Made by a program: the position numbers and the translations under genes. Of a DNA stretch of 22,973 nt, positions 1-19,766 are shown piece by piece (position 1 is the stretch's first letter; each line of letters begins with the position of its first letter). This DNA is from Trichoplax sp. H2 (lineage: Eukaryota), in assembly GCA_003344405.1 (NCBI GenBank), contig NOWV01000102.1, forward strand, positions 248,001-270,973, given 5' to 3'. Below the pieces are notes generated by a model. It made no database searches. It was not told the DNA's origin and worked only from the letters and a program-made list of their open reading frames with translations.

Positions 1-3000
1 CGCGATTTAGATTCCTTTATATTTATACCATAATATACTTGTAGTTGTTAAATTAGTAAAGAATCAATAGATTGCTAAACTGAATTATTATTTTCCATTG
101 CTCCGAGTAATTTTGTGTTATTTTGTCGAACCAAAGTCAATCTTTTATGCAATTTTGTGATTTTGATTGAAGGCAGGATATGACTGTAACTGCTACCGTA
201 ATGACGTAAATAGCTAGGTACATGCCTGATTGATTAAGTAATTATTTGTGCGGTCTTATAGACATATAATATTGTATAACTTTGGAAAACTTGTTTTTAT
301 ATGGATATAGTATAAAGCAACCATACTAACTGGCACATCTAGTCTGCCAGAGATAATTATTTAACTAGATTTCTTATGCCGCTGCTTAATTTTTTAACTT
401 CCTTGGAAGATTGTCTGGTTGAGAATTCAACGATATCATATCCAGCATTAACATTTAAAATTAATTCTCTTGATTAATAACAACTATGTAGTCCAGTTGC
501 GTAACTTTTTCAAGTCTAATTCTGAAATTAAGGAGATATTATTTAAATAACCGTGATCGTGGAGGAATTAAAATTGTTCTTTAAAAATATGCCACAATAT
601 ATTGTGATTAATAAAATACGCGATAAAAGCATAAATGCCATTCAATTTTTAATAAATGCTGGTTAACTTGTCTACAATAACCTCTAATTTAAACGTATAA
701 AGGTTCTTTTAATATCATATGCCTTAAAAGTTCTACTAATCTCAGAGTCAAAATTTTGATTTAAAGGATATATCCTATTGAATATTTTAAAATCTATATA
801 ATCAGCAATATTTTTCACGGAAGATTATGCTCGTAAATTCCTACATGAAAAAGTTCAAATCCTTTTAACAAACTGTGGGTTCGCTAAAGCATAGTACTCT
901 ACAGTTCGTGTTTGCAATGGTTAAAACTACTATCATGCAATCAATTAATAATTTATCAACAATTTAAATGGTTGCCGATATTCATTCAGATATTACCCTA
1001 TCGTCAACCATAGTATTTTTAATATTGCTATAAATATACTATATGGTAGTGATTTCGTCATATACTGCGGGCAATGAGTAAATATATTTACAATGTGCAC
1101 TTAATTTTGTTCGTTGATATCTCGATCACCAATATCTTTGGTTAACTAATTACGAAATCGAATCTATGACAACAGTATAATTTGATGGAGCCCGTAATAG
1201 GAATAAAACATTAATTTAAATTCTTAATACTATACTACATATTTATCATCCCCTGATAGAAAGTCTCTTCTCAGTAAATAGTTCTCTTTCATTTAATATT
1301 ATTCTTCTTGTATTTCAATACTAATTAATACAATTTTTCCCTTACCATAAACACATCACGAATTTCAAATCGTATATGAAGAAATCCATCGATCCAACGA
1401 CAATCGCATGATTAGGATATACGTACGCCTAAAAAATTAAGTAAATGTAATCATTTGATTCTGTAATGATCTCAGCTAATTGTAGTAGAACAGTATGTGG
1501 CTAAGCAAACCTAAAATGATAGCAGGAGTCTATTATATGTTCATTACAGATTCATTAGCATTTCGCTTCTAATATTTTGCCGGAAAAATTTTAATTATTT
1601 TCATAGTATGTAAGTAAAATATTATTTACGTAGAAATAGATTGCCGAGGCCATCGTTTGTAGTTATTCTGCCAAGAATGTAGATAATGCAATTGTACTTA
1701 TTGAAACCTTGTCACGGCAAAAACTCTGTAAACTTAAACGCTGAAATATCTAAAACGCCCTCTGAAAAACCTACATATTATTCGCACTTTTAACAACTGC
1801 CATGCTTTATCATATTATTGCAAAATTTCGACTTTTACAGTATGTTCTTTATTCAGATGATTGAATATTTTATTACGTTCTAAGCTTCTGTAAATATTTC
1901 AACCTTCTATAACGGCGTTAAAGCTCTTTCCATTCGAAACCTTATTTTAAATTTTTAGCTAGAATTTTTAATTGTTTATATGAGAAATTCATTCCACTTC
2001 GAAGTGCACCTTGCCCAAATATTATTAACGGCAAATTGGGCTTAAATTGGGATCGTATACAGAATAATAAAAATCATTTCCTGATGAAAAATTATAGGGT
2101 GTAGCCATAAAAATGGGCAAAAACAATCGCATTAAGCAATATCGATGCTTTATTTAATTAATTGGACGATGTATGTTCAAAATACATCGTTATGATTGAT
2201 ATTAGCGATAGCAGAGGATCTGAATTCAAGTGGGAGAAATATTTTATAGCAAAATTAGGCGCTAGAAATAAACAGTAAGATTGAGTTTACTCATTGTTAA
2301 TATAATAAAGTCTTTATACAGCAACATATTTGCGTTATTTGGACTTTACGAAAGTGTTACTACAGTAATATCTACTGGGAAATATTGCTATGTAACGCTA
2401 TTCAATCTACAGAGCATGTGTTTAAAATTGATGTAATCAGCCAATTTCTATTGTAAAATACTTTTAATTGAAAATTCCATAAGAATTTGATTTGGAACAA
2501 ATGTAATAAAATTTGGAATTTAAAATAAAGGCAAGAGAGGAAGGTAGTTGTTATGGCTATGATGACCTATGATAATATTAAGATATTAAGACACCACCTA
2601 CCTATAATATTAAATCTCATAGATTATTAGCAAACTATTACACATTAGATTTCTTACAGTCATAATTTTCATATGTACCAATGCATCATATAATATGTTA
2701 TTCTTTTATTATTTCTTTCTTAACATTGTACGGTGCTGTGTGTAAGCCATATACAGTACTATAGTATAGCAAAGATAGTTTTGATTATCAAGACTAACTG
2801 CAGAAATTCGATATTAATGTAGTTTAATCTATGTCTGTTGTAATCGTTATTTGGTTCCTTGCAAACTAGTACTACATTAAGTAAGCGCAGCAAATATTAT
2901 ATTACCATTTCATTAAATCCAGTACACCAAATCTGGATTTGGAAACTGATTCAATTTTTTTCTTTATTAGCGATTATCGAGTATATCTAGATATCTTTGA

Positions 3001-3458
3001 GAGTGAAATTAGAAGACTTAAAATCCTAACGCAAGCTGTTGCGACTAGATCAATATCCTAAACATCCATTCCCGCTATGGCCACTGCAGGCAAGTTCATC
3101 TTTATGGGGATAAATAATTTTATTAAATCACGATGATGCTGTTACGACCAAACTCTTTCAGACTAGTACTTCCTAAACTACATTATTCTGCTACGCATCT
3201 TAGTCTCTATGCAAGCTATTATCGAAGATTAGGTTCTTGATTTCTTTCTAGAGTATCATGAGCAATCAGGATTTAGCGAGATTTTACTTCCAGAATTAAT
3301 CGTAGGACTTAAATTTTCGCAGTTGAGACTATAATTCCTATTTAGATATTGCTTCGAAATACTAGATAATGAAATTATTTCATTATTTTCGTTACTATTC
3401 AAAATTTAGGTACTTTTCAGTCGCAATTATGAGTTCTAGTCAATACTTCGAGCATCAA

Positions 3459-3821
3459 CGGTCGTTAGAAATATTTAAAAGTAAACTTAAACTCATTTAA
3501 TGTTATAATATCAGTTCAATCACAGATTTATTTACTCTGCGATGTGTAATTCACCATAAATTAGTTATAACTACTATGATTTATACTACTAGAGTAACGA
3601 ATATTTATACAGGATGTAATATATGATCAAAAATAACCATTACAATTAGATGCTATAACATTGTAGTAACTGTAGAATACACTTTATAAATTAAACAATT
3701 ATGGCAATTTTTAACCACCCATTATACTTACAGTAGCGATTTAAAGTATACCAATAAATATGTCTCTTATATTTTTATAACATTGCAAACTCTAAAAAAA
3801 TATATACATTAAGACATACAT
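3459..3821. repeat. Empty-site haplotype copy of locus A (allelic duplicate of 3842-4645 lacking the insertion)
   Basis: 3459-3613 matches 3842-3996 and 3614-3821 matches 4438-4645 with 4 substitutions. There is a single ACAGG at 3609-3613. The copy ends at an N gap. Its 363 bp equals 804 bp minus 436 (element) minus 5 (TSD). Confidence 0.93.
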
Positions 3822-3841
3822 NNNNNNNNNNNNNNNNNNNN
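3822..3841. other. Assembly gap (20 N)
   Basis: Run of N separating two versions of the same locus. Confidence 1.
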
Positions 3842-3996
3842 CGGTCGTTAGAAATATTTAAAAGTAAACTTAAACTCATTTAATGTTATAATATCAGTTC
3901 AATCACAGATTTATTTACTCTGCGATGTGTAATTCACCATAAATTAGTTATAACTACTATGATTTATACTACTAGAGTAACGAATATTTATACAGG

Positions 3997-4432
3997 TGTC
4001 ACAAACCAACTTCGTGACAAGTATAACGTAAAAACAAATCTCTAAATTACTATAGTCTCCGGGATTCAGTATCCCTACTTACAAGAATTTAGACGCCTTT
4101 GATTCTACGTTAAAACAACTATACAATTGAGAACTGCTTTATTCAACTATCTGACGGGTTTATATACCCTTCTACAGCAGCTAACATTCACAAGTCATCT
4201 TATAATAATACTTGGGTGAGAACATCTACTAACTAATTTTTCACAGTCGGACTACAATATGTCCATTCACAGAATCATTTCAGCACACATTACAGCACAG
4301 CAATAAATTTACTGTAACACATTTATAATTAGAGTAATTCCTATTGTAAGTAACTAGTTGTAATATAATATCACTATACTATATTAACCAAATTTAGATA
4401 GCTATTTCTTCACGGTAGTTCGTACCGTGACA
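3997..4432 (-). mobile_element. Solo-LTR-like element, copy 1 (436 bp), 5-bp TSD ACAGG
   Basis: Starts TGTCAC, ends GTGACA, flanked by ACAGG at 3992-3996 and 4433-4437. The empty site is seen at 3609-3613. Minus-strand TATATAAA (4159-4166) lies 15 nt before AATAAA (4138-4143). About 93-94% identical by manual alignment to 9405-9845 in inverted orientation. No ORF. Confidence 0.92.
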
Positions 4433-4726
4433 ACAGGATGTAATATATGATCAAAAATAACCATTACAATTATATGCTATAACATTGTAGCAACTGTAGA
4501 ATACACTTTATAAATTAAACAATTATAGCAATTTTTAGCCACCCATTATACTTACAGTAGCGATTTAAAGTATACCAATAAATATGTCTCTTATATTTTT
4601 ATAACATTGCAAACTCTAAAAAAATATATACATTAAGACATACATGATATCACTATATGTTCATAATTCTCAATTACAGCTATTTTGCTATTATACCAAG
4701 GAACAATAAAGACTTTGTCCTACGGC

Positions 4727-5124
4727 GGCTGTTATTTAGGATAATCATTTTCGACTTTACATATATATTAATATTACTATCGAAGACTGTTTCTAGTTAT
4801 TAACAATGTAATAATGATGAAAATCATCGCAGCTGGAATCGTAATATGTATTGTTACATCTATCTATATCTAATACCATTTGCCTGGAAAGATTTCTAGT
4901 AACATTTATGAATAATAGTATTAATAGCTATTGGCTGTTATAGAGGATAATGATTTTCGATTTTACACATATATCAACAGTGCTGTTAAATATCGTTTTT
5001 AGGTATTGTACGATGTAATAACGGTACAAACTGTTGCAGCTTGAAACATGACATGCTTCGTTACGTCTATATCTACTATCACTCTCTGGAAAGATATCTC
5101 ATGACATTTCTGTGTAATATTATT
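4727..5124. repeat. Diverged tandem duplication, 2 units, period ~206 bp
   Basis: GGCTGTTAT..AGGATAAT.ATTTTCGA.TTTACA at 4727 and 4933; colinear anchors ATGTAATAA, GCAGCT, GTTAC.TCTAT, CTGGAAAGAT, ACATTT. Confidence 0.85.
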
Positions 5125-8100
5125 TATTTATCGTTTAAGCAGAAATACGCCTAAATTATTCCTATGGATCAGCCTTAAACCAAAAAATATCAGATAAGTG
5201 CCAACTTTCATCCCCAAAGCAAATTAATCACTTTAACATTACAAATAATATTAAGAGAACAAAATATAGACCGATCTACTACACATTATATCGCTTCATA
5301 CTAATATATTACATTTAATACTACATATACTCAATGAAACATTCATGATAAATTCGTACATTTTGTTATAATTTGTAACTAAAAGATTATGCTATACATT
5401 CAAAATTGAGAATTTACCATTACCTCGAAAAATTAAACTATAAGTTAGATCAAAGGAACAGAATAAGAAAGCGAAACTAGCGCAGATAAGTTAATATCAT
5501 TTCAAAGGCCAAAAATTTTAATGAGTATTGTCTAATAAAAATCCTAATAATTACGGTATGAAAGTAGTGACTAATATTTATGTAATTACTATAATTCCAA
5601 ACAAAAATATTGCATTCGACTTATCTCTATGCAGATGATCCAATTATATTATTTAACGAGGGGACAACTATGAAAATCTTTCATCGTCATGGTAGCTATT
5701 GTATTCTAATGAAATTATTTCGTTAGCTCACATTAAATTCTTCGTCAATAATTAATTAGGTAAGGAAAGGATTTCTCTTAGTCTTCTTATTGTACTCTAA
5801 GAACTGGCAAAAGAACTTGGTTCAAAACCTCAATTAATCAGGTAATTAACATAAAAATTTATGAATTAATACAAAAATGGAAATAATAAAAATGACTATA
5901 ACAAAAACTAAAAATAACGACTTGCGTTTCCTATGACGCATTTATCAATTCTATGTACAGTATAAGTCCTACAATTATCTGAGAAGGCAATAAACTCATA
6001 TATTCTTACCCTAAACTGTAAATAGGCTGTAAAGTGTTAGGGATCATCAATTCGGTAAGGTAAGATTTGTTTCACAAAACCAGTTTTCCGACGATAATTT
6101 GGCCTGATTTAACTTGCAAGCGAAAGAGATCAATACAACACCCTTTTCATTATGAATTATTTTGTAAACTAAAAGATTTTTTACTCCGCGTTCTTATGAC
6201 TTTTCTTATAATTTTTAAATAAATGATAAGAATACAATTTAGATTTTTGCTCGATGGAATCATGAATTTATGATTCCTCTTCAAAGTATGTATAAAGCTC
6301 ATGAGTTATCCATATTATTACAGGATAGATAACTACTTTTCCCCTCAGCAAGTTCATTATATTTTTTGTCATGTCTGACGGAAATATTTATTCAGAAGAA
6401 TCTTTGCATCATTATAGATGTATCTATACAGAAGGTAAACGGTTTTTGTCAGATTAAAACTAATAACTGAAACGAAATTATTCTTATATTAATTGAAAGA
6501 AAATAACTCCAAAGCACTAATGTTACTATTACACAGCACTAGCTTGAGGCAAATAAAGACTGTAAAAGCGAATAACATAAGATGTTCACCTAATATTCGG
6601 TAACCAATTCGGTGATACTAGCTAAGATTAGAATATAGTGAGGTATTTGCAATAATTTATGCATTCATTTATATTTTAATTATTATTAGCTTTTTCAGCA
6701 GCAGGGTTACTAACTTGACATTAAAAGTAGATAATACGCTAACTATCGCTTCTGTAAATAAAATGTAAATTAATAATCGTTACTCATCCACCTATTCCTA
6801 TATTTTATGTCAAACTTATCTAGCTGAGCTAACCCCGAATAATACATAATAAGGGTTAAGTAATTATTTACCTGACAAAAACAGGTTGCAGATTAATTAT
6901 CTTATCAACCAAACAGCTTGTTCATGCACAATACTACTTTCCTACGCTATTAAGCAAGCGTACTTATTGATAATAGCACTAAGCATATTATAATAAGATG
7001 TCTTCCTGAATTTGGATCGTTATAAAGGAATCATCATTTCATCAAACGAATAAAATTGTACGAGCTTTGGCCAAGTACATTTCAGATGCTATCAAATTAA
7101 CTCTAGAAATGATTTTATAAATTCTTCTATTCTTCAAAATGGAACTTTTTCAGCAGTTATGAACGTATAATGTTAATATTAGCCTTTATAAATATTTCAA
7201 GAAGTAATATTGTCATATACGGTACTAGATTTAATTATTACAAAATTGAATTATTATAAAGTCAGGCTTTCTTCAAAAAACCTACAGTATATACTAAATA
7301 CCTTAATGCCTCTGTTGATGTGTATCATTCTTATAGTTGAAAAATTTTTATAGCTTATTAACAACCCACCATACTAGTGTATTATTTTCTAAATTAGACA
7401 ACGATTTCAGTGTAATTTCTTTCACGGTTCTAGAATTTAAATTCAATGTTTCGGTATATAAGTGTAATCGATTTAGCATAACCAACCTTTCAATACCAAT
7501 ATCTACTACCTAGCTGAAGACATGTATTAAAATCATGTAGCACCTGTACGATAAATTTATGCCATCTGCAAGATTTTTTACAATTGGTAGCACATTTCAT
7601 GATAAGAAAGTATTACGACGAATTTTTCACTATCTAGCTTTGCATATATATTTATAAAGTACACTACTGCATTGCTTCGAATATCGACGTAACTTTGACA
7701 CTCATACATCATTGATAACCTTAGAAAATTTTTAGCTCCAAAAAGTGAACAGTTTTGCATGTATTCTGTAATAACCACGCAATAGTCTACAGCTATTACT
7801 GTATCCTATATTTGGCTATCAGATACGGCTTAACTAGAGAATCCCAGTCTTATACTCGAAACAGTACAAGTGTGCCGCCTCATCTTATTAGCCACCTACA
7901 GTACTACTACAATTAGCTGAAATCATTACATATTCATCTAGCAATCGCGAAATATAGCATGTACTGGAACTAGTTACTGTCTAGTACTAATGCTATATTA
8001 TGATTCATACCTGTAATTCCGTTCTTTTATAACCCCTCGTTCAAATTTCTCTATAAAAGATAGAATTCGATTTTTTGTGTTTTCATTCTCCGTAAGCGAG

Positions 8101-8178
8101 CAGTACTCAGCCATTCCATACACTAGGACTAGTTAAGATCTAGTAGTCATGTTAATTAGCGATTTTTACTTTTAAATG

Positions 8179-8748
8179 TAGTCGTTTTTCGATCTGTTTT
8201 CGAATTTCTTTGCGAATATGATGCAAATATGTCAATGATGAAGTTTATTTTAAAATTTCAGCTCGGCACAGTAAACACTATAGTATTTATTTAATAAGGA
8301 TGAGAGACATCTTAACGTGAGTTTTGTGTAGAGCTATCGTATTTAATAGGACCAAGGACCCTGATATCTGGATTGAGTATCACAACTCTTTGATGCCGAG
8401 TAAGTACATCTATATAATAGATAGATGAATAAAGTTGATAACGAGATAGACTAGAATGTTTATCGTCTACAATTGTCGCTTGGCGATTTTATTATTATTC
8501 AGCCGTTTTTGATCTGTTTTAAAATTTTAATAAAAATAGCCGTAAATATATCAATGATAAAGTTTAAAATTTTAGTTCAGCACAACAAAGATACGAAATA
8601 CCTTAATATACGTCCTGTGTAGTCCTATTGTATCTTAATAGGACTAAGTGCCTTACTATCTAGATTGAGTATCATAACTATTTGATGTCGCGTAGCTAAA
8701 TCCATGATAGATATTTTTATGAAGTTAATAACGAAGTAGACTGAAATC
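8179..8748. repeat. Diverged tandem duplication, 2 units (~8179-8457 and ~8501-8748)
   Basis: Colinear anchors GATCTGTTTT, TCAATGAT.AAGTTTA, TGTGTAG, TTAATAGGAC.AAG, GATTGAGTATCA.AACT.TTTGATG, AAGTT.ATAACGA, TAGACT in both units. Confidence 0.85.
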
Positions 8749-9380
8749 TAGCCATTTTGCCACACAAAATTTAAAATATTACGGTAAATACCGTAATAGT
8801 TTTCATCTAGAAGCGTATTCAATACGAATAACTTTGGGTTCACTTGCATCTCCAATTTTGTTGTAAAAAATGCGAAAGATGTATTTCTCAAAAATTAGCA
8901 AGATTAGCAATTTAACTTGACCTCAGTTGAAGCAAAAAGATATTTATATGTATTAAAATATACCCTACGTTCCGGATGAATAGAATTTTAAATGAAAATT
9001 GAAGTTAATAACGATAATAGCAGAACAACGATTATAATGAATCGATGTTTTTACGGTCATCGCATACTGTGGAACAAATACTACTGCTACAAATCCCTAT
9101 CAAATCCACTCGCTAACAATAACGCTATTCCGATAAAAGACCAAAAACTGTAGATAAATAACATTTTTAAAACACTATAATTTTATATTAAGGCGTTAAC
9201 CTACCATTTTTCAATAATTTCAATCCAGCCATTGATTAATCCTTATTTTCCGGTCGTTTCTATATGTATTTTATATTAAGACATTCACCTATCATTATTG
9301 TATAGTTCCTATCCAACTAATGATCAATCCGTATTTTTCGGTTATTTCCATGTTAGGAATGGCCAGAATATTTACTTGCA

Positions 9381-9404
9381 TGTATATGTATATATATATA
9401 TACA
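9381..9404. repeat. (TA)n microsatellite abutting LTR-like copy 2
   Basis: TGTATATGTATATATATATATACA; its last 5 nt (ATACA) form the left TSD. Confidence 0.85.
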
Positions 9405-9845
9405 TGTTACGGTACGAACTACCGTGAAGAAATAGCTATCTAAATTTGGTTAATATAATATAGTGATAATATATTACAACTAGTTACTTACAGTAGGAAT
9501 TACTCTAATTATAAATGTGTTACAGTAAATTTAATGCTGTGCTGTAATGTGTACTGAAGTGATTCTGTGAATGGACATATTGTAGTCCGACTGTGAAAAA
9601 TTAGTTAGTAGATGTTCTCACCTAAGTATTTTTATAAAATGACTTGTGAATGTTAACTGCTGTAGAAGGGTATATAAGCCCGTCAGAAGTTGAATAAAGT
9701 AGTTCTCAATTGTCTAGTTGAGTTTAACGTAGAATCAAAGGCGTCTAAATTCTTGTGAGGTAGTTAAGGGATACTGAATCCCGGAGACTATAGTAATTTA
9801 GAGATTTGCTTTACGTTATCCTTGTCACGAAGCTGATTTGTGACA
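9405..9845 (+). mobile_element. Solo-LTR-like element, copy 2 (441 bp), 5-bp TSD ATACA
   Basis: Starts TGTTAC, ends GTGACA, flanked by ATACA at 9400-9404 and 9846-9850. Reverse complement of copy 1 with roughly 20 substitutions and 4 indels (net +5 bp). Confidence 0.92.
9671..9698 (+). promoter_or_regulatory. LTR TATA box (TATATAA 9671-9677) and polyadenylation signal (AATAAA 9693-9698)
   Basis: The same pair with 14-15 nt spacing is conserved in all three element copies, including the divergent one. Confidence 0.65.
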
Positions 9846-9891
9846 ATACATTACGATAGAAAGCGAATAAATAGAATCAATATAATGTTCG

Positions 9892-9899
9892 TGACGTCA
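9892..9899. promoter_or_regulatory. Consensus CRE/ATF palindrome TGACGTCA
   Basis: Exact octamer ~590 bp upstream of the GPCR 1 ORF; function not shown. Confidence 0.3.
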
Positions 9900-10293
9900 T
9901 TAATATTTAAACAGCGACGAGCCAGTCGATAGCTGTGAAATATTTGATATTTCTTATTATTAATTCGAAGATAGATAGTACAAATAGCAAGTACATAGCA
10001 AGTGATAATTAAAGTAGCGTATTAATATTTTCCATGCAACCATATATTCCATGGCAACGAATATAAATATAATATTATGCTTGTTACGTATTTATGAGTC
10101 CTACTGACATTTCCAGTTCAAATTATTCCTACGGTTAGTCTTTGATTTTTATTCCACCCATTAAGTTTTAAGTATTGTCGTTGATGGTTACATTTCTTCT
10201 GATCTTTTTTGACGTTTTTTATTATCATGTTCTGATGCTTGAGCAAATTAAAAGAATTGCATCGCTATTCGGTGGAAAATCTCAAGCAATCAA

Positions 10294-10312
10294 TTCATTT
10301 TTTATCTTGCAG
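10294..10312 (+). other. Candidate 3' splice acceptor in the 5' UTR of GPCR 1
   Basis: TTCATTTTTTATCTTGCAG|AT: pyrimidine tract plus CAG, 170 nt upstream of the first in-frame ATG. Confidence 0.45.
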
Positions 10313-10481
10313 ATACATTATAAGAAAATTAAACTCATAAAACTTTAATAGCTTATCAAAGGTATCTTCATGATAATGCTCATTGCCCTGCTACAATCGA
10401 ATTTCTATTCTGCTATAATATTAGAGTGAGATTTCTCTCCCCAATTGCTAGTTGTAATTGAGTCGTGAATTTTATCATCTT

Positions 10482-11546
10482 ATGCAGAAGGTTAGACGGC
10501 AATCGATAATTCAAAATTTAGTGAGACCAAACTATCAGCTCTACAGTATGTTTCAGTTAGCTACAGTTAGCTTTGATAATACAAATACTACTTTATTGCC
10601 TACTTCCGATTTTAAAACTAATCCGTTACAATTAGTCACTATTGCAACACTATCAATTATTGCAATGGGCTCAGTAGTAGGCAATTCCTTCTGCCTGGCA
10701 ACTATTTACGCTACTCCATCATTACATAAAGTTAATAACATCCTTTTGGCTAATATGGCTGCTGCTGATCTTTCTATCGGTATGATAGCTTTACCAGCCA
10801 TGGTGGTTGTTGTTTGGCTAGATTATCCGATTCCAACTATTTTATGTCAATTTCAAGGTTTTGTCTTAGTCTATTTATATCCAGTATCATTATTGACGGT
10901 AACGGCCATTACCGTCGATCGAATTTTAGCTATAACTCGGCCATTGCACTATTCGGATGTTATTACTTATAAATTTCGATGGATCTTAGGGATCATCTGG
11001 ATAGCACCATTTACTATAGCTTTAATGCCAGTGATGCAATTAGAGCAATTCGGATTCGGAAATTACGATAAGGTAATGGTTTGTTGGATAGATCTACATC
11101 ATAGAAGTCACCGTCCATATACCTTCTCTGCTATATTATTGACCTTTATTATTGGTATTATCCTAGCTATTATTGGCTGTTATACTGCTATCTTTATTAT
11201 AGCTTGCCGAAAAACCGTCTATATACCCCATAGATCAAGCCAAGATATGGTAAAATCAATTCGCACTACTGCTCTTATTGTTGGCACAAGTATTTTATGT
11301 TGGATTCTATTGGCAATTGATTATTTTATTGATTTAACTCGAGTTTCTTTATCCAAAAGGTTATCGATCATCGAAATCCTTGTCTCTTTTGCCGCAATAA
11401 GTAACTCGATGATTAATCCTATCGTTTATGTCTCTACAAATACCATCTTAAGAAGGAAATTTCTAAGCCTGTTTAAAGTATTTCCTACCGCGACAAATCG
11501 AATTCAAAAAATTACAGTTAAACAAAGTAGTACCTGTCCTTCATGA
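10482..11546 (+). CDS. Class A (rhodopsin-like) orphan G protein-coupled receptor, single coding exon (GPCR 1)
   Basis: Seven hydrophobic segments with GN (TM1), MAAAD (TM2), C3.25 and ECL2 Cys, DRI (TM3), W (TM4), CY (TM5), CWIL (TM6), NSMINPIVY (TM7), LRRKF helix 8, and an N-terminal NTT sequon. The ORF-track start 10458 is TTG. The first ATG is 10482; ATG 10548 has better context and may be the true start. Confidence 0.93.
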   Translation: MQKVRRQSIIQNLVRPNYQLYSMFQLATVSFDNTNTTLLPTSDFKTNPLQLVTIATLSIIAMGSVVGNSFCLATIYATPSLHKVNNILLANMAAADLSIGMIALPAMVVVVWLDYPIPTILCQFQGFVLVYLYPVSLLTVTAITVDRILAITRPLHYSDVITYKFRWILGIIWIAPFTIALMPVMQLEQFGFGNYDKVMVCWIDLHHRSHRPYTFSAILLTFIIGIILAIIGCYTAIFIIACRKTVYIPHRSSQDMVKSIRTTALIVGTSILCWILLAIDYFIDLTRVSLSKRLSIIEILVSFAAISNSMINPIVYVSTNTILRRKFLSLFKVFPTATNRIQKITVKQSSTCPS

Positions 11547-14079
11547 TCAAAATTATAGGCCATAATTCGTAAACATTATTGTACTTGAGATCAACATTAT
11601 CCAGACCAAAAGTTGGTGTATTCATCGTAAATAGATTAATCATACGAGTAATATAATAACAAGCAAGACAGCACAAGCTAATATTCTCTCTTCTTTCGTC
11701 AACGCTTGCAAGCTTAAAATTAATATTATCTTGATCACAATGTTAATGCATTCATCGATTTCATTAAATTCAGAATACTTGCAGTTCTACTTGTCTCCCG
11801 AAGTATTCTAAATACAAATAATTAAGCATAAAGCTTAACGATATCAACATTTCATTTTTTATTTTCAAACTAATATTGCCAAAGCATTGACTAGCATTTT
11901 AAAGTTGTATTAAGTACATTACTGTTCCAAATTGTATGATATGAAAGGTTGTGCAAGAGTTATTTTCCACCAGAATCAGAACAAGAAATTATATAATCTT
12001 ACTATAACCAACAATACCTCATCCAAGATTTCTCTGTTTGTAATCATTTTTCTTGAAATAAACTAAAAAGCGTCAGAGCCGATCCTTTACCCTTAACAAA
12101 GATAATATATTGCCGCTTTTAATAAAATAAATTAAATAATTTAATTCTAAATTACAACTACCTCAATCAGGAGTTTCTTGGCAAGTAAGGATTCTTCTAG
12201 AAATAAACTTAAAGTCACCAGGGTTAATCATTTTATCCAGCTAGAGATAATATTTGTCGCTTCACTAGAAGTTATTTTAAAATAGCTAATGAGCATAGTA
12301 TGTCTTGTTATTGGAACAAATACACTAACACAAATAATATTTCCAAGAAATGAGGCTATTGCAGTAAATCTACACTAAAAAAGTTAGCTTTTAAACTTTA
12401 CTCATAGACTATAATCACATAACTTCTATTACAATACTGATTAATGATTTACTTCATAGAATTCAATTATACTTATAGACAATTCTCTCCTGAACACTTT
12501 TTTAACAAAGATACTCCTGGTGTTAATTAAAATCTTGTTAAAGTCACTTTTTAGCTCATGTAGCTAAGCTAGTCAATCGACAACGTAAACCTTGTACTTT
12601 TGACGCAGATTGCCTAAAATTGCGATTTTAAAAGTGTTAGTAGCGCATCTTTTATATAATACATTAGTCTTATCGATAGATATTCGCTAGGCTAATTGTT
12701 TCCTAGTGTGATGGAGGGTTCGAAGAGTCAGATAATGTGGTTTTAGTTGCCATGCAGAGAATTGCACAAAGCGCTTAAGAAAAGAGGATACTTTATTTTA
12801 GATAGTAGTTAGGTATAAAGTGTGATAATTACGGTAGGTCTGCGTGGTAGCTGCCGTGAGTAAAGTGCGAATACTAACTGTGACTAATAATGGAACTTAA
12901 CAAATCTAAGGTAGAAAACGGCGGTATTTATAGCTATGGCATTAGAACACATGCAGAGAACATGATTGTAGGATTAGATACAACATATACCATAACAGGT
13001 TATAGAATAGCAGATGATTGTAGAAAATAGCGAGGACTGTAATAGCTAAATGTAGTAAGCCATATTTGAATGTAGAACGAACAGACTGTAAATATGTCTA
13101 AATATAAGATCAATACAACATGTCTATATTTAACAGTAGAATATAGTTACAGTATATTCTAAATACACTACACCTAAAAAAGAATTTTTAAGATACGGAC
13201 CCAGAAATGCTACCTAATTAAAGATATATTATTATCATCCTCTTATTAGCACTGTCGAAGATATATTATTTTTATCGATGAAATACATAAGAAACGTAGC
13301 TACTTTACGGTAATGTTTTTCAAATCAGTAGCATATTCTTAGGACTATCTTGACATCGATTATTACAAATATTGGAAAGTGATCTAGTTAGAAAGAATAT
13401 AAGTTAGAACTAACCAAAAATGAATTTCAAATAGCTAGGAGTAAGTTCATATCATGGATCCAGTACATTATTTTGTTGAGAAACAAGACTTTAGGAAATT
13501 CCAATTAATTTTCAATTTACTATCTAATCTTGTTAAAAATCGCAGAAAGTTTATTTCCGAAATTTAGATGAATAATTGACTTGATGCATAACGAAATTAG
13601 AAGGCCCAGTATTAAGATACTACACACTTATATAGAGTACGGTAGTAATTAATTAACTCTTATTTAAATAACATAGAAATTATAAATACCTTTTCCTGTA
13701 AAGCACTTCCATACATGTACAAATAAATTTGATATACGTTTAATTAAGAATAAAATACCCACCAGCGTAATATTTCCAGAAATTCAAGAAAGCAATAGAT
13801 TCATGGGAAATCTATCTGATAGCAAATGCAAGGATATTAAATACTGTTCCCCTTAAACAAATTTTAAATATAAGCTTTAGAATGGAGCACAGCAAAAAAA
13901 TATTATGTCATTTTTTATCTTTATGTAATGAAATGAAAAGTGTAGAGATCAAGCTACAAAACTTTAATAAATTTTGATTCTACTTTCGTTACACTCCGGT
14001 CGACTTAACGAAACTTTGACACCAAATAAAATCTGGGTAAATAATCGATCAACAATTTTATTAAACAGTCTGACTACTT

Positions 14080-14330
14080 GACAATCAACACAACCTCTGC
14101 CAATTTCCATCTTATTTTCTATTTTCCTAACTAAACTTTCCTAATGTGACTTTCATGTCACATCATAAAATTCCAAAGTTTCAAATTCATTACAAAAAGT
14201 TCAAATTTCAAAAATCAACTCTTACGATATTTTTCATAAACTAAAATCCAAAAATTAAAACAGAAAAATTATATATGACATAAATCCAACCGGTTCCGGG
14301 ATCCAAATCCCGAAAAATCCGGATTTTATA
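14080..14330. promoter_or_regulatory. Promoter-like patch: G-poor A/T-tract region followed by a CCGG-rich palindrome cluster
   Basis: Repeated AAATTC/AAAGTTTC/AAATTTC tracts, then AACCGGTT (14288-14295), CGGGAT-N4-ATCCCG (14297-14312) and AAAATCCGGATTTT (14314-14327). The promoter role is inferred only. Confidence 0.3.
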
Positions 14331-15255
14331 AAGATCACAGTAATCGCTTATCAACAAATTTTATATGGCTACTATGACTACTTTTCTGACATTAGTATCG
14401 CTTAGTATTGACAGTTGATGTTTTAGCGTTAGGTTGTACGGTAACTGCACGATTATAGACTACATTACAGTACTTTACTGTCGTGTTATAAATCCCCTTT
14501 CTCTATGGATAGGGTTTTGCTACTAAGTCAAACTCATTTACAATTTGAATAGACTATCAAATACCCTTTCTTTAGATTAGGCAATTGCTCTAGGGCTATT
14601 TCTATAGTAATCTATATAATACCTTGTAAAATAATGAAGAAGAAAAGATGGCGACGTGATGATTTGGCAGGGCAAAACTTAAAGACACTATCACTTCATC
14701 GGTATTTTCTATAGTAAAATAATACTAGTTACATACTAAAAGCTATAAAGGACTCTACTTTTAGTCCTTTACTACATTTATAATAAACGATATATTTATG
14801 ATCTTTCTTATAAACTGTTTTTACACCTGAATAGCATGAAAAATTAACCAATTTGATTATTTATACTACTTAAATATTGTCTATCAGAAGAGATAATCAT
14901 TAAAAAAATATCTATAAATACTTTTCATATAAGAGCTAATGACATACTCATACATTCAGAAATGAAAAATTTGAAATGAAATTCTTACCTTTTACCGATG
15001 AAAGTATTAGTCTCTACACAGTTACTTTTCATAAGTAACTAGTAATGGCAATATCCTCCTTATTATTATAGCAAAATTAATCCAATATAGTTATTTAATA
15101 CTATATCATCAAACTAAACAGCAAGATAAAAAGAAATCTTCATACTATGATAATATTAATCAGTCGAAATAATAAAACTCCATCAATATACAAATTTAGA
15201 TATCCGTACAGTAGTTCCATTTTTTAGTAATTATCAAGGTATAAAATATTACCGT

Positions 15256-15263
15256 TGACGTCA
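15256..15263. promoter_or_regulatory. Consensus CRE/ATF palindrome TGACGTCA (within TTGACGTCAA)
   Basis: Exact octamer ~3.4 kb upstream of GPCR 2; function not shown. Confidence 0.25.
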
Positions 15264-16018
15264 AATTAGATAGAAAACACAGCTTTAATTTTTACGATAA
15301 CAATCTAGGGCTCTCAGTACTCCAGTTACATGTGTATAGGTACTCCTCCTTCCCTCCCATTTTTTTAATGTACACTAATTGGTATAACAACATTTTAAGT
15401 AGGCAATGATTTGATTATTAACTAAATTATAGTCTGGCCCTGTAATCTGGTGGATTATCTACACGAAAATATCAATCTCATTACAAAGCAGCATAAGAAC
15501 CAATTTTAAATGAATTCATAGTTTCTGAAACTGTATAAATTTTAATATTTGCGATACAACAATTGGACAATTTTAGTATCAAGAGCGAACAGATCGATAA
15601 GTAATGTAGATAGCTTGTTACCTCCTGTCACAAAACAGCTTTGCAACAAGATAACGCAATATACGATCAATAAGTCAATTCCTTGAACCACGTATCAAGG
15701 AACGATATCTGCACTATCACAAACACTTTTGCTCTACTAGCAGACTACACAAAGACTTAAACGCCTCGTATTTTACGTTAAACACTAAGTTGGACAATCC
15801 TTCTTTATTTCACGATATACTGCATTTATATACTATTCCTCAATAGTTCATGAGTCATAGTTAATACAATTAACATTAGAATCATTTACTGAATTAGATA
15901 TTAATTTTAGCTACTGCTCCCTTAATGCAGACAACAGTATTTACGAACATAGACATATAATGACTAATACAGAATAGTCAGATTACGATATGTCCTATCA
16001 CGGAACATTTCCATGATA

Positions 16019-16038
16019 NNNNNNNNNNNNNNNNNNNN
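16019..16038. other. Assembly gap (20 N)
   Basis: Run of N. Confidence 1.
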
Positions 16039-16371
16039 CCTGTAATCTGGTGGATTATCTACACGAAAATATCAATCTCATTACAAAGCAGCATAAGAAC
16101 CAATTTTAAATGAATTCATAGTTTCTGAACTGTATAAATTTTAATATTTGCGATACAACAATTGGACAATTTTAGTATCAAGAGCGAACAGATCGACAAG
16201 CAATGTAGATATCTTGTTACCTCCCAAGTAAGAACGTTATCTATTTTATCATACTTTTGAAATTTATTCACAGAATTAACATAAAAATCTTCCATTTTTA
16301 TTAACAGTAACAGCATTAATATTCAGTTCCAATGCGCTACAAGACTATCTTGGCATAATTTACCGATGTGA
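16039..16371. repeat. Empty-site haplotype copy of locus B scaffolded between two gaps inside copy 3
   Basis: Matches 15439-15625 joined directly to 16698-16844, with a single CCTCC, about 6 substitutions and one 1-bp indel. Confidence 0.93.
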
Positions 16372-16391
16372 NNNNNNNNNNNNNNNNNNNN
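16372..16391. other. Assembly gap (20 N)
   Basis: Run of N. Confidence 1.
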
Positions 16392-17875
16392 TATAATGAC
16401 TAATACAGAATAGTCAGATTACGATATGTCCTATCACGGAACATTTCCATGATAATTTACAGTCTACTATAAGTAAATTACAATCACAATGATTCGAACT
16501 GTAAGCAGATGATTTGCATTCCCTATTATAACTATTAATTTCAGTATGTGTATAAGTGTCACTGTCATAAAAAGTCAGTGCTATATTAAAATACAGTATA
16601 TCCAAATTAGAAGTTAACTAAATAAGGATAGTCTAATAGAATTATCCTAACATTGATATTTTTACTGTAATACAGTTTATAACACTGTAACACCTCCCAA
16701 GTAAGAACGTTATCTATTTTATCATACTTTTGAAATTTATTCACAGAATTAACATAAAAATCTTCCATTTTTATTAACAGTAACAGCATTCATATTCAGT
16801 TCCAATGTGTTACAAGACTATCTTGGCATAATTTACCGATGTGATCAAGAAAATTTTTAGCCCTCATCCAAGTATGAGTAATGGACTTAAATTTTAAATG
16901 AGACTATCCAGTGGCAAGTAAATAATAACTTTAAATTACACGTAGATGTAATTCTATCAAATGAATTCGTCAACATCGTATCCTAACTGGCTAAACATAA
17001 CAACTTTATTTCACAACTAAATGATATCGATGAATGAAAATTACTACACTAGTATTCCTTCATAGCTCTTTCATACAAATATATAGAATTTGAATAATGC
17101 ACCTATGACATATTTCCCATAGCTAATCAATAAAATTTTTTCATTTTATATTTGGCTACTTTTTGTAATAATATCATGTCTTTCTATTAGCAATTAGGTC
17201 AATTTTTATCATATAATTAATTCTCTCAACATCAATTACCTCCCCTATTGGCCATAACTATTGGATAAATTTTACATAGCAGCTAGATTGTATTTTTGTA
17301 AATTAGTAATCTAATATGGCCTAATTATTGCTTGAATAAGTTTTATTTTGCTATTAGACTTTATGGTAATCGATACATAATTGATGAGAACAAAATTTGT
17401 AGACAATTGAAATTTCTTGGAAATGGATTTATAAAACAATACGATGACCAGCATAATTATTTCTATAACTAATTCCATCAGTGGTAAATTAGTTTTCACA
17501 GCTATTAATTAGCTTTAACTTATTTTTCTCATCAGTATTAATTTATCATGTGAATTTATAACACTCACTTTTGCAGGAATTCCTTAAAACGAAATTCCGT
17601 CATTTTATTTTCTGTACTTAATATTTTTCTAAAGTCAAAAAATCATATGATAACTGCAGAAACCCGTGAAATATTGACTCCTGTTAAAATAATATTATTA
17701 TTATTCATATCAGAACAAGCCGCTTTTCCAGTTTACCCGTAAATCAATATAAAGAAAATGTTGAACAATCATAAGGCTATCATTTTGCATATTACATAAT
17801 GAAAGAGTTAACCTTTTCCCATTGACCAATTGTGCATATAATTTCGCTACTGCCTGGTACAATATTCCACTTCTA

Positions 17876-18627: not shown

Positions 18628-18704
18628 AAAATTATTTAAAAACAGTTGATTTCTCCTTCTGGAGAAGCGGATGAAGTTATTTACACTATACCTAATGCTC
18701 ATTG

Positions 18705-19766
18705 ATGTCAAGGATGGATCCTATCAACGTGCTAGTTAATGTGAGTAATCACTCGCAAAATCTTGCGAGTAATATTAGTCAGAACCAGTCTTATGCGAAT
18801 GCTCCTGTCAACTTTATGTTCATGATTCCGGCATTATCCATTATTAGCGTAATTGCAATAATTGCTAACATATTTTGTCTTACTACAATCTACCATACGC
18901 CATCCTTACATGACATTAGTAATGTTATGATAGCCAATTTAGCCATAATTGATCTTTTAACGGGGATGACAGTTATACCTACGATTATTACAGTACTTTT
19001 ATTAGGCAATGAAACTCCATCATGGTTATGCAAACTTCAAGGATTTTTAACGGTTGCCATGTATGGTGCTTCATTATTTGCAATTGTTGGTATAAGTATC
19101 GATCGTTTTCGAGCCGTTACCAGGCCGTATCATTATTCCTCTATAATCACCAAGACAATCATTGTAAAATTGCTGATGACAATACCTATCCCCATCATTG
19201 TTGCATCCCTACCATTATTCAATTTGGTCAATCATGGATTTGGCAGCTATATAAAAGAATTTGTTTGCTGGTCCCCCGCCTGTAGGCACAATCAACCAGC
19301 TTATATCTCAAGTGCTGCCACCGCTGTATTCATAGTTATATGCATTGGAATTGTTTTATTCTGCTATATCACAATTTTCATCATCGCCTATCATAAAAAT
19401 AAGAAGAATATCCATCTAAAGCGAAATATCAATATAAAATCTATACGCACAACGGCATTAATAGTCGGCACCAACCTCATCTGCTTTTTACCCCAACTTA
19501 GTGCAATTACTTCGGCTCTCATTAATTGTAATAATAATTCTCCGGAATTTTTTCAAGCTGTATTTTACACTATAACACTAAGCAATTCTGCACTTAATCC
19601 TATTGTTTATATCTCGACCAACTCAATTTTGCGGAGAAAATTAGTTCAATTAATGCTCGTTAAAGCTTTGAGTAAAAAAGATCCTTACAGCCAACGCGAT
19701 CATTTACCGCAAAGTAGAAGTCTAGAACTTAGTAACAATACTTCAATTTTAACAACAAGATTTTAA
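18705..19766 (+). CDS. Class A (rhodopsin-like) orphan G protein-coupled receptor, single coding exon (GPCR 2), paralogue of GPCR 1
   Basis: Seven hydrophobic segments with AN (TM1), LAIID (TM2), C3.25 and ECL2 Cys, DRF (TM3), CY (TM5), CFLP (TM6), NSALNPIVY (TM7), LRRKL helix 8, and four N-terminal sequons (NVS, NHS, NIS, NQS). Shares TPSLH, QGF, TRP.HY, GFG.Y and KSIRTTALIVGT with GPCR 1. 18702 is TTG; ATGs are at 18705 and 18714. Confidence 0.95.
   Translation: MSRMDPINVLVNVSNHSQNLASNISQNQSYANAPVNFMFMIPALSIISVIAIIANIFCLTTIYHTPSLHDISNVMIANLAIIDLLTGMTVIPTIITVLLLGNETPSWLCKLQGFLTVAMYGASLFAIVGISIDRFRAVTRPYHYSSIITKTIIVKLLMTIPIPIIVASLPLFNLVNHGFGSYIKEFVCWSPACRHNQPAYISSAATAVFIVICIGIVLFCYITIFIIAYHKNKKNIHLKRNINIKSIRTTALIVGTNLICFLPQLSAITSALINCNNNSPEFFQAVFYTITLSNSALNPIVYISTNSILRRKLVQLMLVKALSKKDPYSQRDHLPQSRSLELSNNTSILTTRF

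Follow-up and report, generated by a model that had tools for sequence, protein, structure and literature searches.

Solo-LTR-like TGT...ACA insertions of two related families, probably present in high copy number, in a Trichoplax contig

What left three short elements with TGT...ACA ends, each set between perfect 5-bp repeats, in one stretch of a placozoan contig? The question arises from positions 248,001 to 270,973 of contig NOWV01000102.1 of Trichoplax sp. H2 (assembly GCA_003344405.1), a stretch of 22,973 nucleotides that we call the window and along which all positions below are counted. An earlier note, made from the letters alone, had described the elements as one family of non-coding insertions bearing the footprint of a retroviral-type integrase. 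We find that the three elements are true insertions made by a 5-bp staggered cut, that they fall into two related families (copies 1 and 2 in one, copy 3 in the other), and that both families most likely consist of solo long terminal repeats (LTRs) of Ty3/gypsy or BEL/Pao type, occurring in high copy number, a reading to which we give a probability of about 0.6.

The positions of the elements, their target-site duplications (TSDs) and their candidate signals are collected in Table 1. All three elements and TSDs proposed in the earlier note proved exact, and the 6-bp ends TGTYAC...GTRACA that it had described were read in every element, as TGTCAC...GTGACA in copy 1 and TGTCAC...GTAACA in copy 3 on the forward strand. 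Three gaps of 20 Ns interrupt the window (3822-3841, 16019-16038 and 16372-16391). Copy 3 lies in two pieces that overlap by 63 identical bases (15956-16018 = 16392-16454), so that its length is 393 + 301 - 63 = 631 bp, as had been proposed for the resolved assembly. Beside copy 1, the segment 3459-3821 matches the flanks of the element (left 155 nt at 100% and right 213 nt at 98% identity), and the segment 16039-16371 carries both flanks of copy 3 without the element. Both empty sites are clean, with the 5-mer present once and zero extra bases. The assembler therefore set the filled and empty alleles of two heterozygous insertions in tandem; two of the three insertions are thus polymorphic, as the earlier note had it, and an empty allele of copy 2 is absent from the assembled window. 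Across some 700 bases of aligned flank, the filled and empty alleles show 10 differing positions and a single 1-nt indel (~1.4%). The presence of two insertions on one allele and not the other places movement of the families after the allele split; the proposal that they moved recently holds in this sense, whereas current activity is not supported. No open reading frame (ORF) of at least 100 aa lies within any of the three elements and the short ORFs overlapping them have no Pfam match, in agreement with the absence of coding capacity and of an adjoining internal region that had been noticed before.

Table 1. Positions of the elements, duplications, alleles and candidate signals in the window
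Feature	Position	Sense strand	Remark
Copy 1, family 1, solo LTR-like, 436 bp	3997-4432	-	strand from TATA-AATAAA module
TSD of copy 1, ACAGG	left 3992-3996, right 4433-4437		perfect, 5 bp
Copy 2, family 1, 441 bp	9405-9845	+	ends TGTTAC...GTGACA
TSD of copy 2, ATACA	left 9400-9404, right 9846-9850		perfect, 5 bp
Copy 3, second family ("family 3"), sense 3' part (putative end of U3, module, R/U5)	15626-16018	-	cut by gap
Copy 3, sense 5' part	16392-16692	-	
TSD of copy 3, CCTCC	left 15621-15625, right 16693-16697		perfect, 5 bp
Empty-site allele, copy 1 locus	3459-3821		single ACAGG at 3611-3615; before 20-N gap 3822-3841
Empty-site allele, copy 3 locus	16039-16371		single CCTCC at 16220-16224; between two 20-N gaps
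Module TATATAAA-N15-AATAAA, copy 1	4138-4166	-	
Module TATATAAG-N14-AATAAA, copy 2	9671-9698	+	
Module TATATAAA-N15-AATAAA, copy 3	15804-15832	-	
Fourth TGT...ACA repeat, 466 bp, different family	12707-13172		ends TGTGAT...CACTACA
Fifth TGT...ACA repeat, 853 bp	13924-14776		ends TGTAATG...TACTACA

The tandem alleles at 3459-4645 and 15439-16844 artificially double a flank of 340-370 bp at each site, and a naive annotation of these two intervals would call segmental duplications. Directly upstream of copy 2, 1.9 copies of an 88-bp unit (78% matches) occupy 9180-9351 and are followed by a short (TA)n / ATGTAT tract at 9380-9407, placing the insertion point of copy 2 at the edge of a simple repeat.

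How often TGT...ACA pairs between identical 5-mers arise by chance was assessed with 100 Markov-1 simulations. The window holds 18 pairs that are 250-1300 bp apart and have identical outer 5-mers, against 15.3 ± 4.0 in the simulations; with the additional demand that at least 5 of the 6 terminal bases be complementary, 8 pairs remain, against a simulated mean of 2.8 and maximum of 7. Because the bare count lies near the chance expectation, this structure by itself is not proof of insertion; the 5-bp cut and the LTR-like ends and signals proposed in the earlier note are supported all the same. Copies 1 and 2 share 93.5% identity from end to end in inverted orientation, with the similarity stopping exactly at TGT and ACA. 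Their identity up to the exact termini, the two clean empty sites and the contig borders described below together prove the insertions. A reading of the whole pattern as chance match or assembly artefact could appeal to the roughly 15 TGT...ACA pairs with identical flanking 5-mers expected per window, and to the N gaps and duplicated flanks, which show that assembly was disturbed around copies 1 and 3. It is refuted by the comparison of copies 1 and 2 and by independent contigs, since every border recurs in the separately obtained contig sets of three DNA runs, which carry two organism labels, and the duplicated flanks are accounted for as filled and empty alleles; its probability is negligible.

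The single family of the earlier note has to be divided. By BLASTN, the likeness of copy 3 to the other two copies is confined to the last 35 nt at the 3' end (83%) and one 60-nt stretch (73%). When copies 2 and 3 are aligned on their sense strands, the upstream part is 38% identical, which is the background for this base composition, and identity rises to 64-65% in the block that opens just before TATA and closes some 55 nt beyond AATAAA, where the best 30 columns reach 81%; the 3' ends are again alike. The two families are therefore related in the candidate promoter/polyadenylation core and at the 3' end only, and the putative R and U5 regions (repeat and unique 5' region of an LTR) are better kept between them than the putative U3 (unique 3' region).

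This distribution of conservation is one of several properties expected of LTRs. The cited sections of a study of LTR structure give as conserved features short inverted repeats of the form TGTTRNR...YNYAACA, AATAAA and a GT-rich stretch after it, and describe the TATA box as less conserved and R and U5 as more conserved than U3 (PMC3601003). At the level of sequence, every conserved feature in that list is found in the elements. Their sense strands begin with TGTCACG (copy 1), TGTTACG (copy 2) and TGTTACA (copy 3) and in all three cases end with TGTGACA, one mismatch from YNYAACA. The terminal inverted repeat measures 6 bp (5-6 of 6 bases complementary) and the ends differ beyond it, as in LTRs; TSDs of fixed length in the LTR range of 4-6 bp are seen at 3/3 sites, where they measure 5 bp and are confirmed by empty alleles at two. 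A putative TATA box, AATAAA and GT-rich stretch follow one another in the right order on one strand of each element. The module combining TATA with AATAAA recurs as the earlier note had described it, with spacers of N15, N14 and N15. In its strict form, TATATAA[AG]-N12-17-AATAAA, it occurs three times in the window, once per element and always on the sense strand, 146-178 nt short of the 3' end. In 500 simulations the count averaged 0.19 and reached 3 at most, a comparison to be read knowing that the pattern was defined after the data had been seen and that two of the three sites are homologous copies.

The ends and duplications also bear on mechanism. TG...CA termini together with a TSD of fixed 5-bp length narrow the field to retroviral-type DDE enzymes, that is, to LTR retrotransposons or to Ginger/TDD transposons. 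In the solo-LTR reading, a full-length element would have been integrated by a retroviral-type DDE integrase that joined TG...CA ends across a 5-bp stagger, the staggered cut would have given the 5-bp duplication, and LTR-LTR recombination would then have removed the interior and left one LTR between intact duplications. The order within the unit would be U3, TATA, AATAAA, a very short R, and U5, all on one strand. Were transcription to begin 25-30 nt or so downstream of TATA, its start would coincide with AATAAA or lie just beyond it, leaving an R of only about 10-25 nt, and the polyadenylation signal would be missing from transcripts begun in the 5' LTR and present at the 3' LTR. Because AATAAA follows TATA by just 14-15 nt and would thus precede the start, only the 3' LTR would direct cleavage. 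The LTRs of Rous sarcoma virus and mouse mammary tumour virus likewise have the polyadenylation signal in U3 and a very short R, and only the signal of the 3' LTR would be used; the likeness to our elements, in which the hexamer lies between TATA and the expected start, is one of layout only.

The contigs of public sequencing runs give an independent view of the borders and of the abundance of the elements. Twenty runs from seven studies, under two organism labels, contain the copy 1 locus or part of it, with contig sets of about 90-140 million letters. Contigs of four of these runs were aligned to positions 3842-16018 at a likeness of at least 80%: X1 and X4 (organism A) and X10 and X20 (organism B). 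X20 is recorded as RNA; X1 had been guessed to be RNA, yet its even intergenic cover at a depth of ~102 is DNA-like, and we count it with X4 and X10 among the three DNA runs. Counts of loose ends, joints and differences given below refer to those listed, namely 24 of 1,532, 15 of 92 and 40 of 334, respectively. Unique contigs of the three DNA runs enter each repeat by only 27-29 nt and then end, and their stops (4406, 9433, 9817, 12733, 13148, 13950, 14750 and 15652) correspond to the borders read from the sequence. At copy 1, for example, unique contigs enter by 27 nt, from 4432 to 4406, and at copy 2 an X10 contig extends to 9433 and contigs of X1 and X10 begin at 9817.

The families are not rare, and the same alignments suggest hundreds to thousands of copies of each. 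The unique parts of this 12-kb stretch would need only a dozen contigs, and 6,210 of 434,637 contigs aligned to it in X1, 4,084 of 223,478 in X4 and 3,001 of 203,803 in X10. Single-copy bins have depths of ~102 (X1), 32 (X4) and 57 (X10). Summed depth in the same three runs reaches 55,449, 16,273 and 12,930 in the first bin of copy 1, 97,300, 29,145 and 30,579 in the 3' bin of copy 2, and 380,335, 133,049 and 110,448 in the bin of copy 3. Scaled for the share of the bin that the element occupies, these depths put family 1 at about 400-1,200 and family 3 at about 2,000-4,000 single-copy equivalents, to be taken as orders of magnitude only, summed contig depth not being a copy number. Loose ends point the same way. 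At 15626, at least 30 contigs of X1 and at least 39 of X4 run into loose ends whose agreement with their consensus is 0.44, and at 15625 at least 21 further X4 contigs do so with an agreement of 0.48; unrelated sequence of this base composition would agree at 0.40-0.43, and the nearness of the two values therefore indicates many separate genomic copies with unrelated flanks. Beyond these runs, neither a 25-nt terminus nor a degenerate core motif had a match in metagenome contigs, and the core motif had none in prokaryote genome contigs or viral contigs.

Contig ends also carry a hint, short of a genotype, on the presence and absence of insertions across runs. Flanking contigs of X10 stop exactly at 4433 and 15625; these stops match the two alleles of the window, since a heterozygote of filled and empty sites breaks a de Bruijn graph at such points. 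In X1 and X4 the corresponding contigs run 27 nt into the element at both places, as expected of the filled allele, with no branch at the border. Copy 2 is entered by contigs of both organism labels, from both sides in X10 and from the right side in X1. Of the 28 positions listed for the single-copy interval 4646-7800, all depart from the window in X1 and X4, compared with 8 in X10.

Several pairs of element termini are joined in these contigs. Among the joints listed, each DNA run has 4430>15624, 9844>15628, 9845>15626 and 9847>15626 at single-copy depth, whereas a fifth, 9844>12710, is limited to X1 and X4. In each joint, two termini abut with 0-2 nt between them, mostly with 3' ends tail to tail and once with a 3' end followed by a 5' end. 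We set aside the idea that they record circle junctions or tandem units, given the different families joined and the fixed single-copy depth. By a rough estimate they are no commoner than chance insertions beside existing ends, and they reflect either chance landing beside element ends or a target preference for them.

The RNA run X20 covers all the repeats. Its depth is 0.004-0.013 of that of X10 in 11 repeat bins from five unrelated repeats, and because this near-constant ratio is what carry-over of DNA would give, the cover is uninformative on transcription. Single-copy intergenic bins have zero depth in X20, and carry-over at so low a level would not assemble there anyway; cover over the first of the two receptor genes described below is likewise zero. 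Low-depth X20 contigs lie on single-copy sequence at 6651-6948, 7182-7589 and 8866-9082, where the ORFs have no Pfam match, and these intervals may belong to an unannotated transcript or untranslated region.

How well do solo LTRs account for all this? Solo LTRs of Ty3/gypsy (Metaviridae) and BEL/Pao elements share with our copies the TG...CA ends, the 5-bp TSD, the order of TATA, AATAAA and GT-rich stretch, the contrast between a variable upstream part and a more conserved putative R/U5, and the intact duplications around a single unit. They differ in that here no paired copy, interior, primer-binding site (PBS), polypurine tract (PPT) or coding partner was seen in the window, that AATAAA stands so close behind TATA that R would be very short, and that the copies apparently number hundreds to thousands. 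A number of observations weigh against the solo-LTR reading. No paired LTR, PBS, PPT, gag or pol was seen in the window, and among the 25 of its 41 ORFs of at least 55 aa that were compared with Pfam, only the two G protein-coupled receptors (GPCRs) found a match. Both allele-polymorphic insertions are already solo (2/2), so that insertion and LTR-LTR recombination would both have to fit within the age of the alleles, which are ~1.4% divergent. The TATA and AATAAA motifs are easily found at an A+T content of ~70% (the G+C content of the window is 27-34%), and a looser form of the module shows no enrichment, with 8 occurrences against 4.8 ± 2.4 expected. In its cited sections, a survey of the Trichoplax genome reports 56 matches to LTR-class retrotransposons, 53 of them gypsy and all degraded, together with ten LTR_FINDER candidates, none of which had more than two copies (PMC2871265); for a placozoan, the part of a later analysis used here counts 9-12 ORFs with reverse transcriptase, integrase or transposase domains (PMC6057997). 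Because placozoan surveys report so few LTR elements, the ratio of solo to full-length copies would be extreme. Finally, TGTNR ends are described as common to Ginger DNA transposons and gypsy elements (PMC2836005, in the part cited).

This last point introduces the main rival, which we consider unlikely but to which we give appreciable weight: the elements could be non-autonomous DNA transposons, moved as DNA by a transposase of the Ginger/TDD type, itself a relative of gypsy integrase. Both ends of each of the five TGT...ACA repeats in the window conform to TGTNR (10/10 termini), and every copy seen is a single unit without interior. The passages cited from the description of Ginger1, Ginger2 and TDD give an integrase-type enzyme that uses TGT...ACA ends and makes duplications of 4-5 bp, with 5 bp, as here, in TDD-4 and TDD-5 (PMC2836005), and the placozoan analysis, in its cited part, names Ginger as the commonest class of DNA transposon, at 0.3% of the genome (PMC6057997). 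One of the further repeats, at 13924-14776, combines a 4-bp duplication with weakly similar inverted ends of ~24 nt (by eye). Against this stand the inverted repeats of Ginger1 and Ginger2, given in the same passages as about 40-270 bp long, compared with 6 bp in our elements, and the targets of metazoan members, where 4-bp duplications at CCGG/CCGT or RTATAY are reported (PMC2836005), compared with 5-bp duplications of ACAGG, ATACA and CCTCC; these three fit only the TDD length and show neither preference, in a sample of three. Nor is there an evident reason for a DNA transposon to keep an oriented TATA-N14/15-AATAAA module with its downstream block across families that upstream of it are no more alike than background. 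Neither empty site has an excision footprint, which is uninformative on this explanation and does not speak against it.

Other DNA transposon superfamilies can be set aside by duplication length and termini under the Repbase classification. Transib elements make 5-bp duplications and have CAC... ends; Polintons make duplications of 5-6 bp and have long inverted repeats and different ends; and hAT, Mutator, piggyBac, Tc1 and PIF elements have other duplication lengths. A short interspersed element or other tRNA-derived retroposon was rejected in view of the TGT/ACA ends, the fixed 5-bp duplication, and the lack of Rfam matches and of ARAGORN tRNAs in the window (zero of each). Introners were likewise discarded: ACAGG at copy 1 does yield AG/GT...ACAG/G, but copies 2 and 3 lack such sites and all three elements are intergenic (by eye).

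Two further explanations keep the LTR and change its history. In the first, units with a single LTR would multiply as such, mobilised in trans by an integrase or integrase-like transposase, and would never have had two LTRs at the sites seen. Each copy in the window, the two allele-polymorphic ones among them, is a single unit between intact duplications, apparent copy numbers are high, and the published placozoan surveys find almost no paired LTRs or coding partners. We know of no reverse-transcription route that rebuilds U3-R-U5 from the transcript of a single LTR; moreover, recombination to solos is common and sufficient, and no linear or circular intermediate is seen in the data. The scarcity of full-length copies cannot be read from the contigs either, because an LTR-interior junction common to many copies collapses into one contig, so that contig counts do not bound the number of full-length elements; for the same reason we discarded the idea of using the consensus of loose ends to look for a PBS or interior common to the copies. 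This explanation is very unlikely in our judgement. We rate as decidedly unlikely a combination in which thousands of LTR-like single units of several families are moved by a Ginger-type transposase with almost no two-LTR or coding elements. If true, the units would bridge LTR retrotransposons and DNA transposons derived from integrases, as a still living intermediate in the small genome of an early-branching animal.

In the second, the units would be the LTRs of short, non-coding paired elements, such as terminal-repeat retrotransposons in miniature (TRIM), large retrotransposon derivatives (LARD) or small LTR retrotransposons (SMART), and their solo state at the three sites would be accidental. 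TRIM elements are short and non-coding and have LTR-type ends and 5-bp duplications, all of which our elements share. Unlike them, the units here contain no paired direct terminal repeats, PBS or PPT: no element with two direct terminal repeats was found, comparison of the elements with themselves (word size 7, E-value <=1e-3) returned the self match only, and direct repeats of at least 40 nt within them were absent. A unit of 436-631 bp also has the size of an ordinary LTR and not of a whole miniature element. We allow this explanation a slim chance, and solo LTRs of Ty3/gypsy or BEL/Pao elements remain the preferred reading.

The count of three insertions in 13 kb given in the earlier note is right in that all three are real and too low in that the stretch also contains at least two more TGT...ACA repeats and some terminal fragments; between them, the five complete repeats occupy about 2.8 kb of 12.7 kb. 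Neither of the two additional repeats has a second copy within the window. The fourth is flanked by the 5-mers CCTAG and CCTAA, which match at 4 of 5 positions; the bin 12774-13179 has about 200 times single-copy depth, and unique contigs stop at 12733 and start again at 13148. The X10 contig of its right flank starts at 13178, just past the mismatched 5-mer, and this insertion could be heterozygous in X10. The fifth is flanked on both sides by TTTA, a 4-bp duplication, or a 5-bp one if a T is shared, and its depth is about 65-860 times single copy in three bins. At least 27-34 of the listed contigs end at 14776 with unrelated flanks, and other genomic copies diverge from it at 14058/14064 (loose ends) and at 14304/14409. 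It may derive from a longer element by internal deletion or rearrangement, and its weakly inverted-repeat-like ends make a Ginger-type DNA transposon possible. A terminal fragment at 7888-7930 ends in ...CATTACA at 7930, where at least 19-20 of the listed contigs with unrelated flanks end, and has an inverted 49-nt relative at 1456-1504 that is 88% identical. Both carry a TGTAATGA-type terminus and are likely to be end pieces of a further family similar to the start of the repeat at 13924.

The two GPCR genes are intronless ORFs of rhodopsin type on the + strand, at 10458-11546 and 18696-19766, that share about 40% identity, while sequences from elsewhere reach only 56-59% at best. The receptors are metazoan, and the Atlas clusters nearest to them occur most often in Cnidaria and Ctenophora. 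Copy 2 lies some 640-700 bp upstream of the first of them in the same orientation. An ACAGT microsatellite, described as abundant in Trichoplax in the cited part of the genome survey (PMC2871265), has no match in the 23 kb, a result that is uninformative on the host.

What the insertions mean depends on the view taken of placozoan repeats. The homology-based Trichoplax survey, in the sections cited, assigned 0.13% of a 104-Mb genome to transposons and considered none of them active (PMC2871265), and the corresponding part of a later de novo analysis put placozoan repeats at 6.6-6.7%, mostly unclassified interspersed ones (PMC6057997). A 2025 study, as far as its cited text extends, ties Mutator insertions to placozoan promoter loops (PMC12221973). 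Solo LTRs as a class are known and routine. These families may be undescribed: we found no published description of the elements in the literature, and Supplementary Table S2 of PMC6057997 or additional file 2 of PMC2871265 may list them. For a placozoan host, they would fall among the unclassified interspersed repeats of the cited part of the later analysis and would give those a mechanism (PMC6057997), and their abundance would qualify the view, taken from the cited sections of the earlier survey, that placozoan transposons are few and inactive (PMC2871265). The allele-polymorphic sites are ready-made markers of haplotype or lineage. With a promoter-like and a polyadenylation-like signal in every unit, and copy 2 near a receptor gene, effects on neighbouring genes are conceivable.

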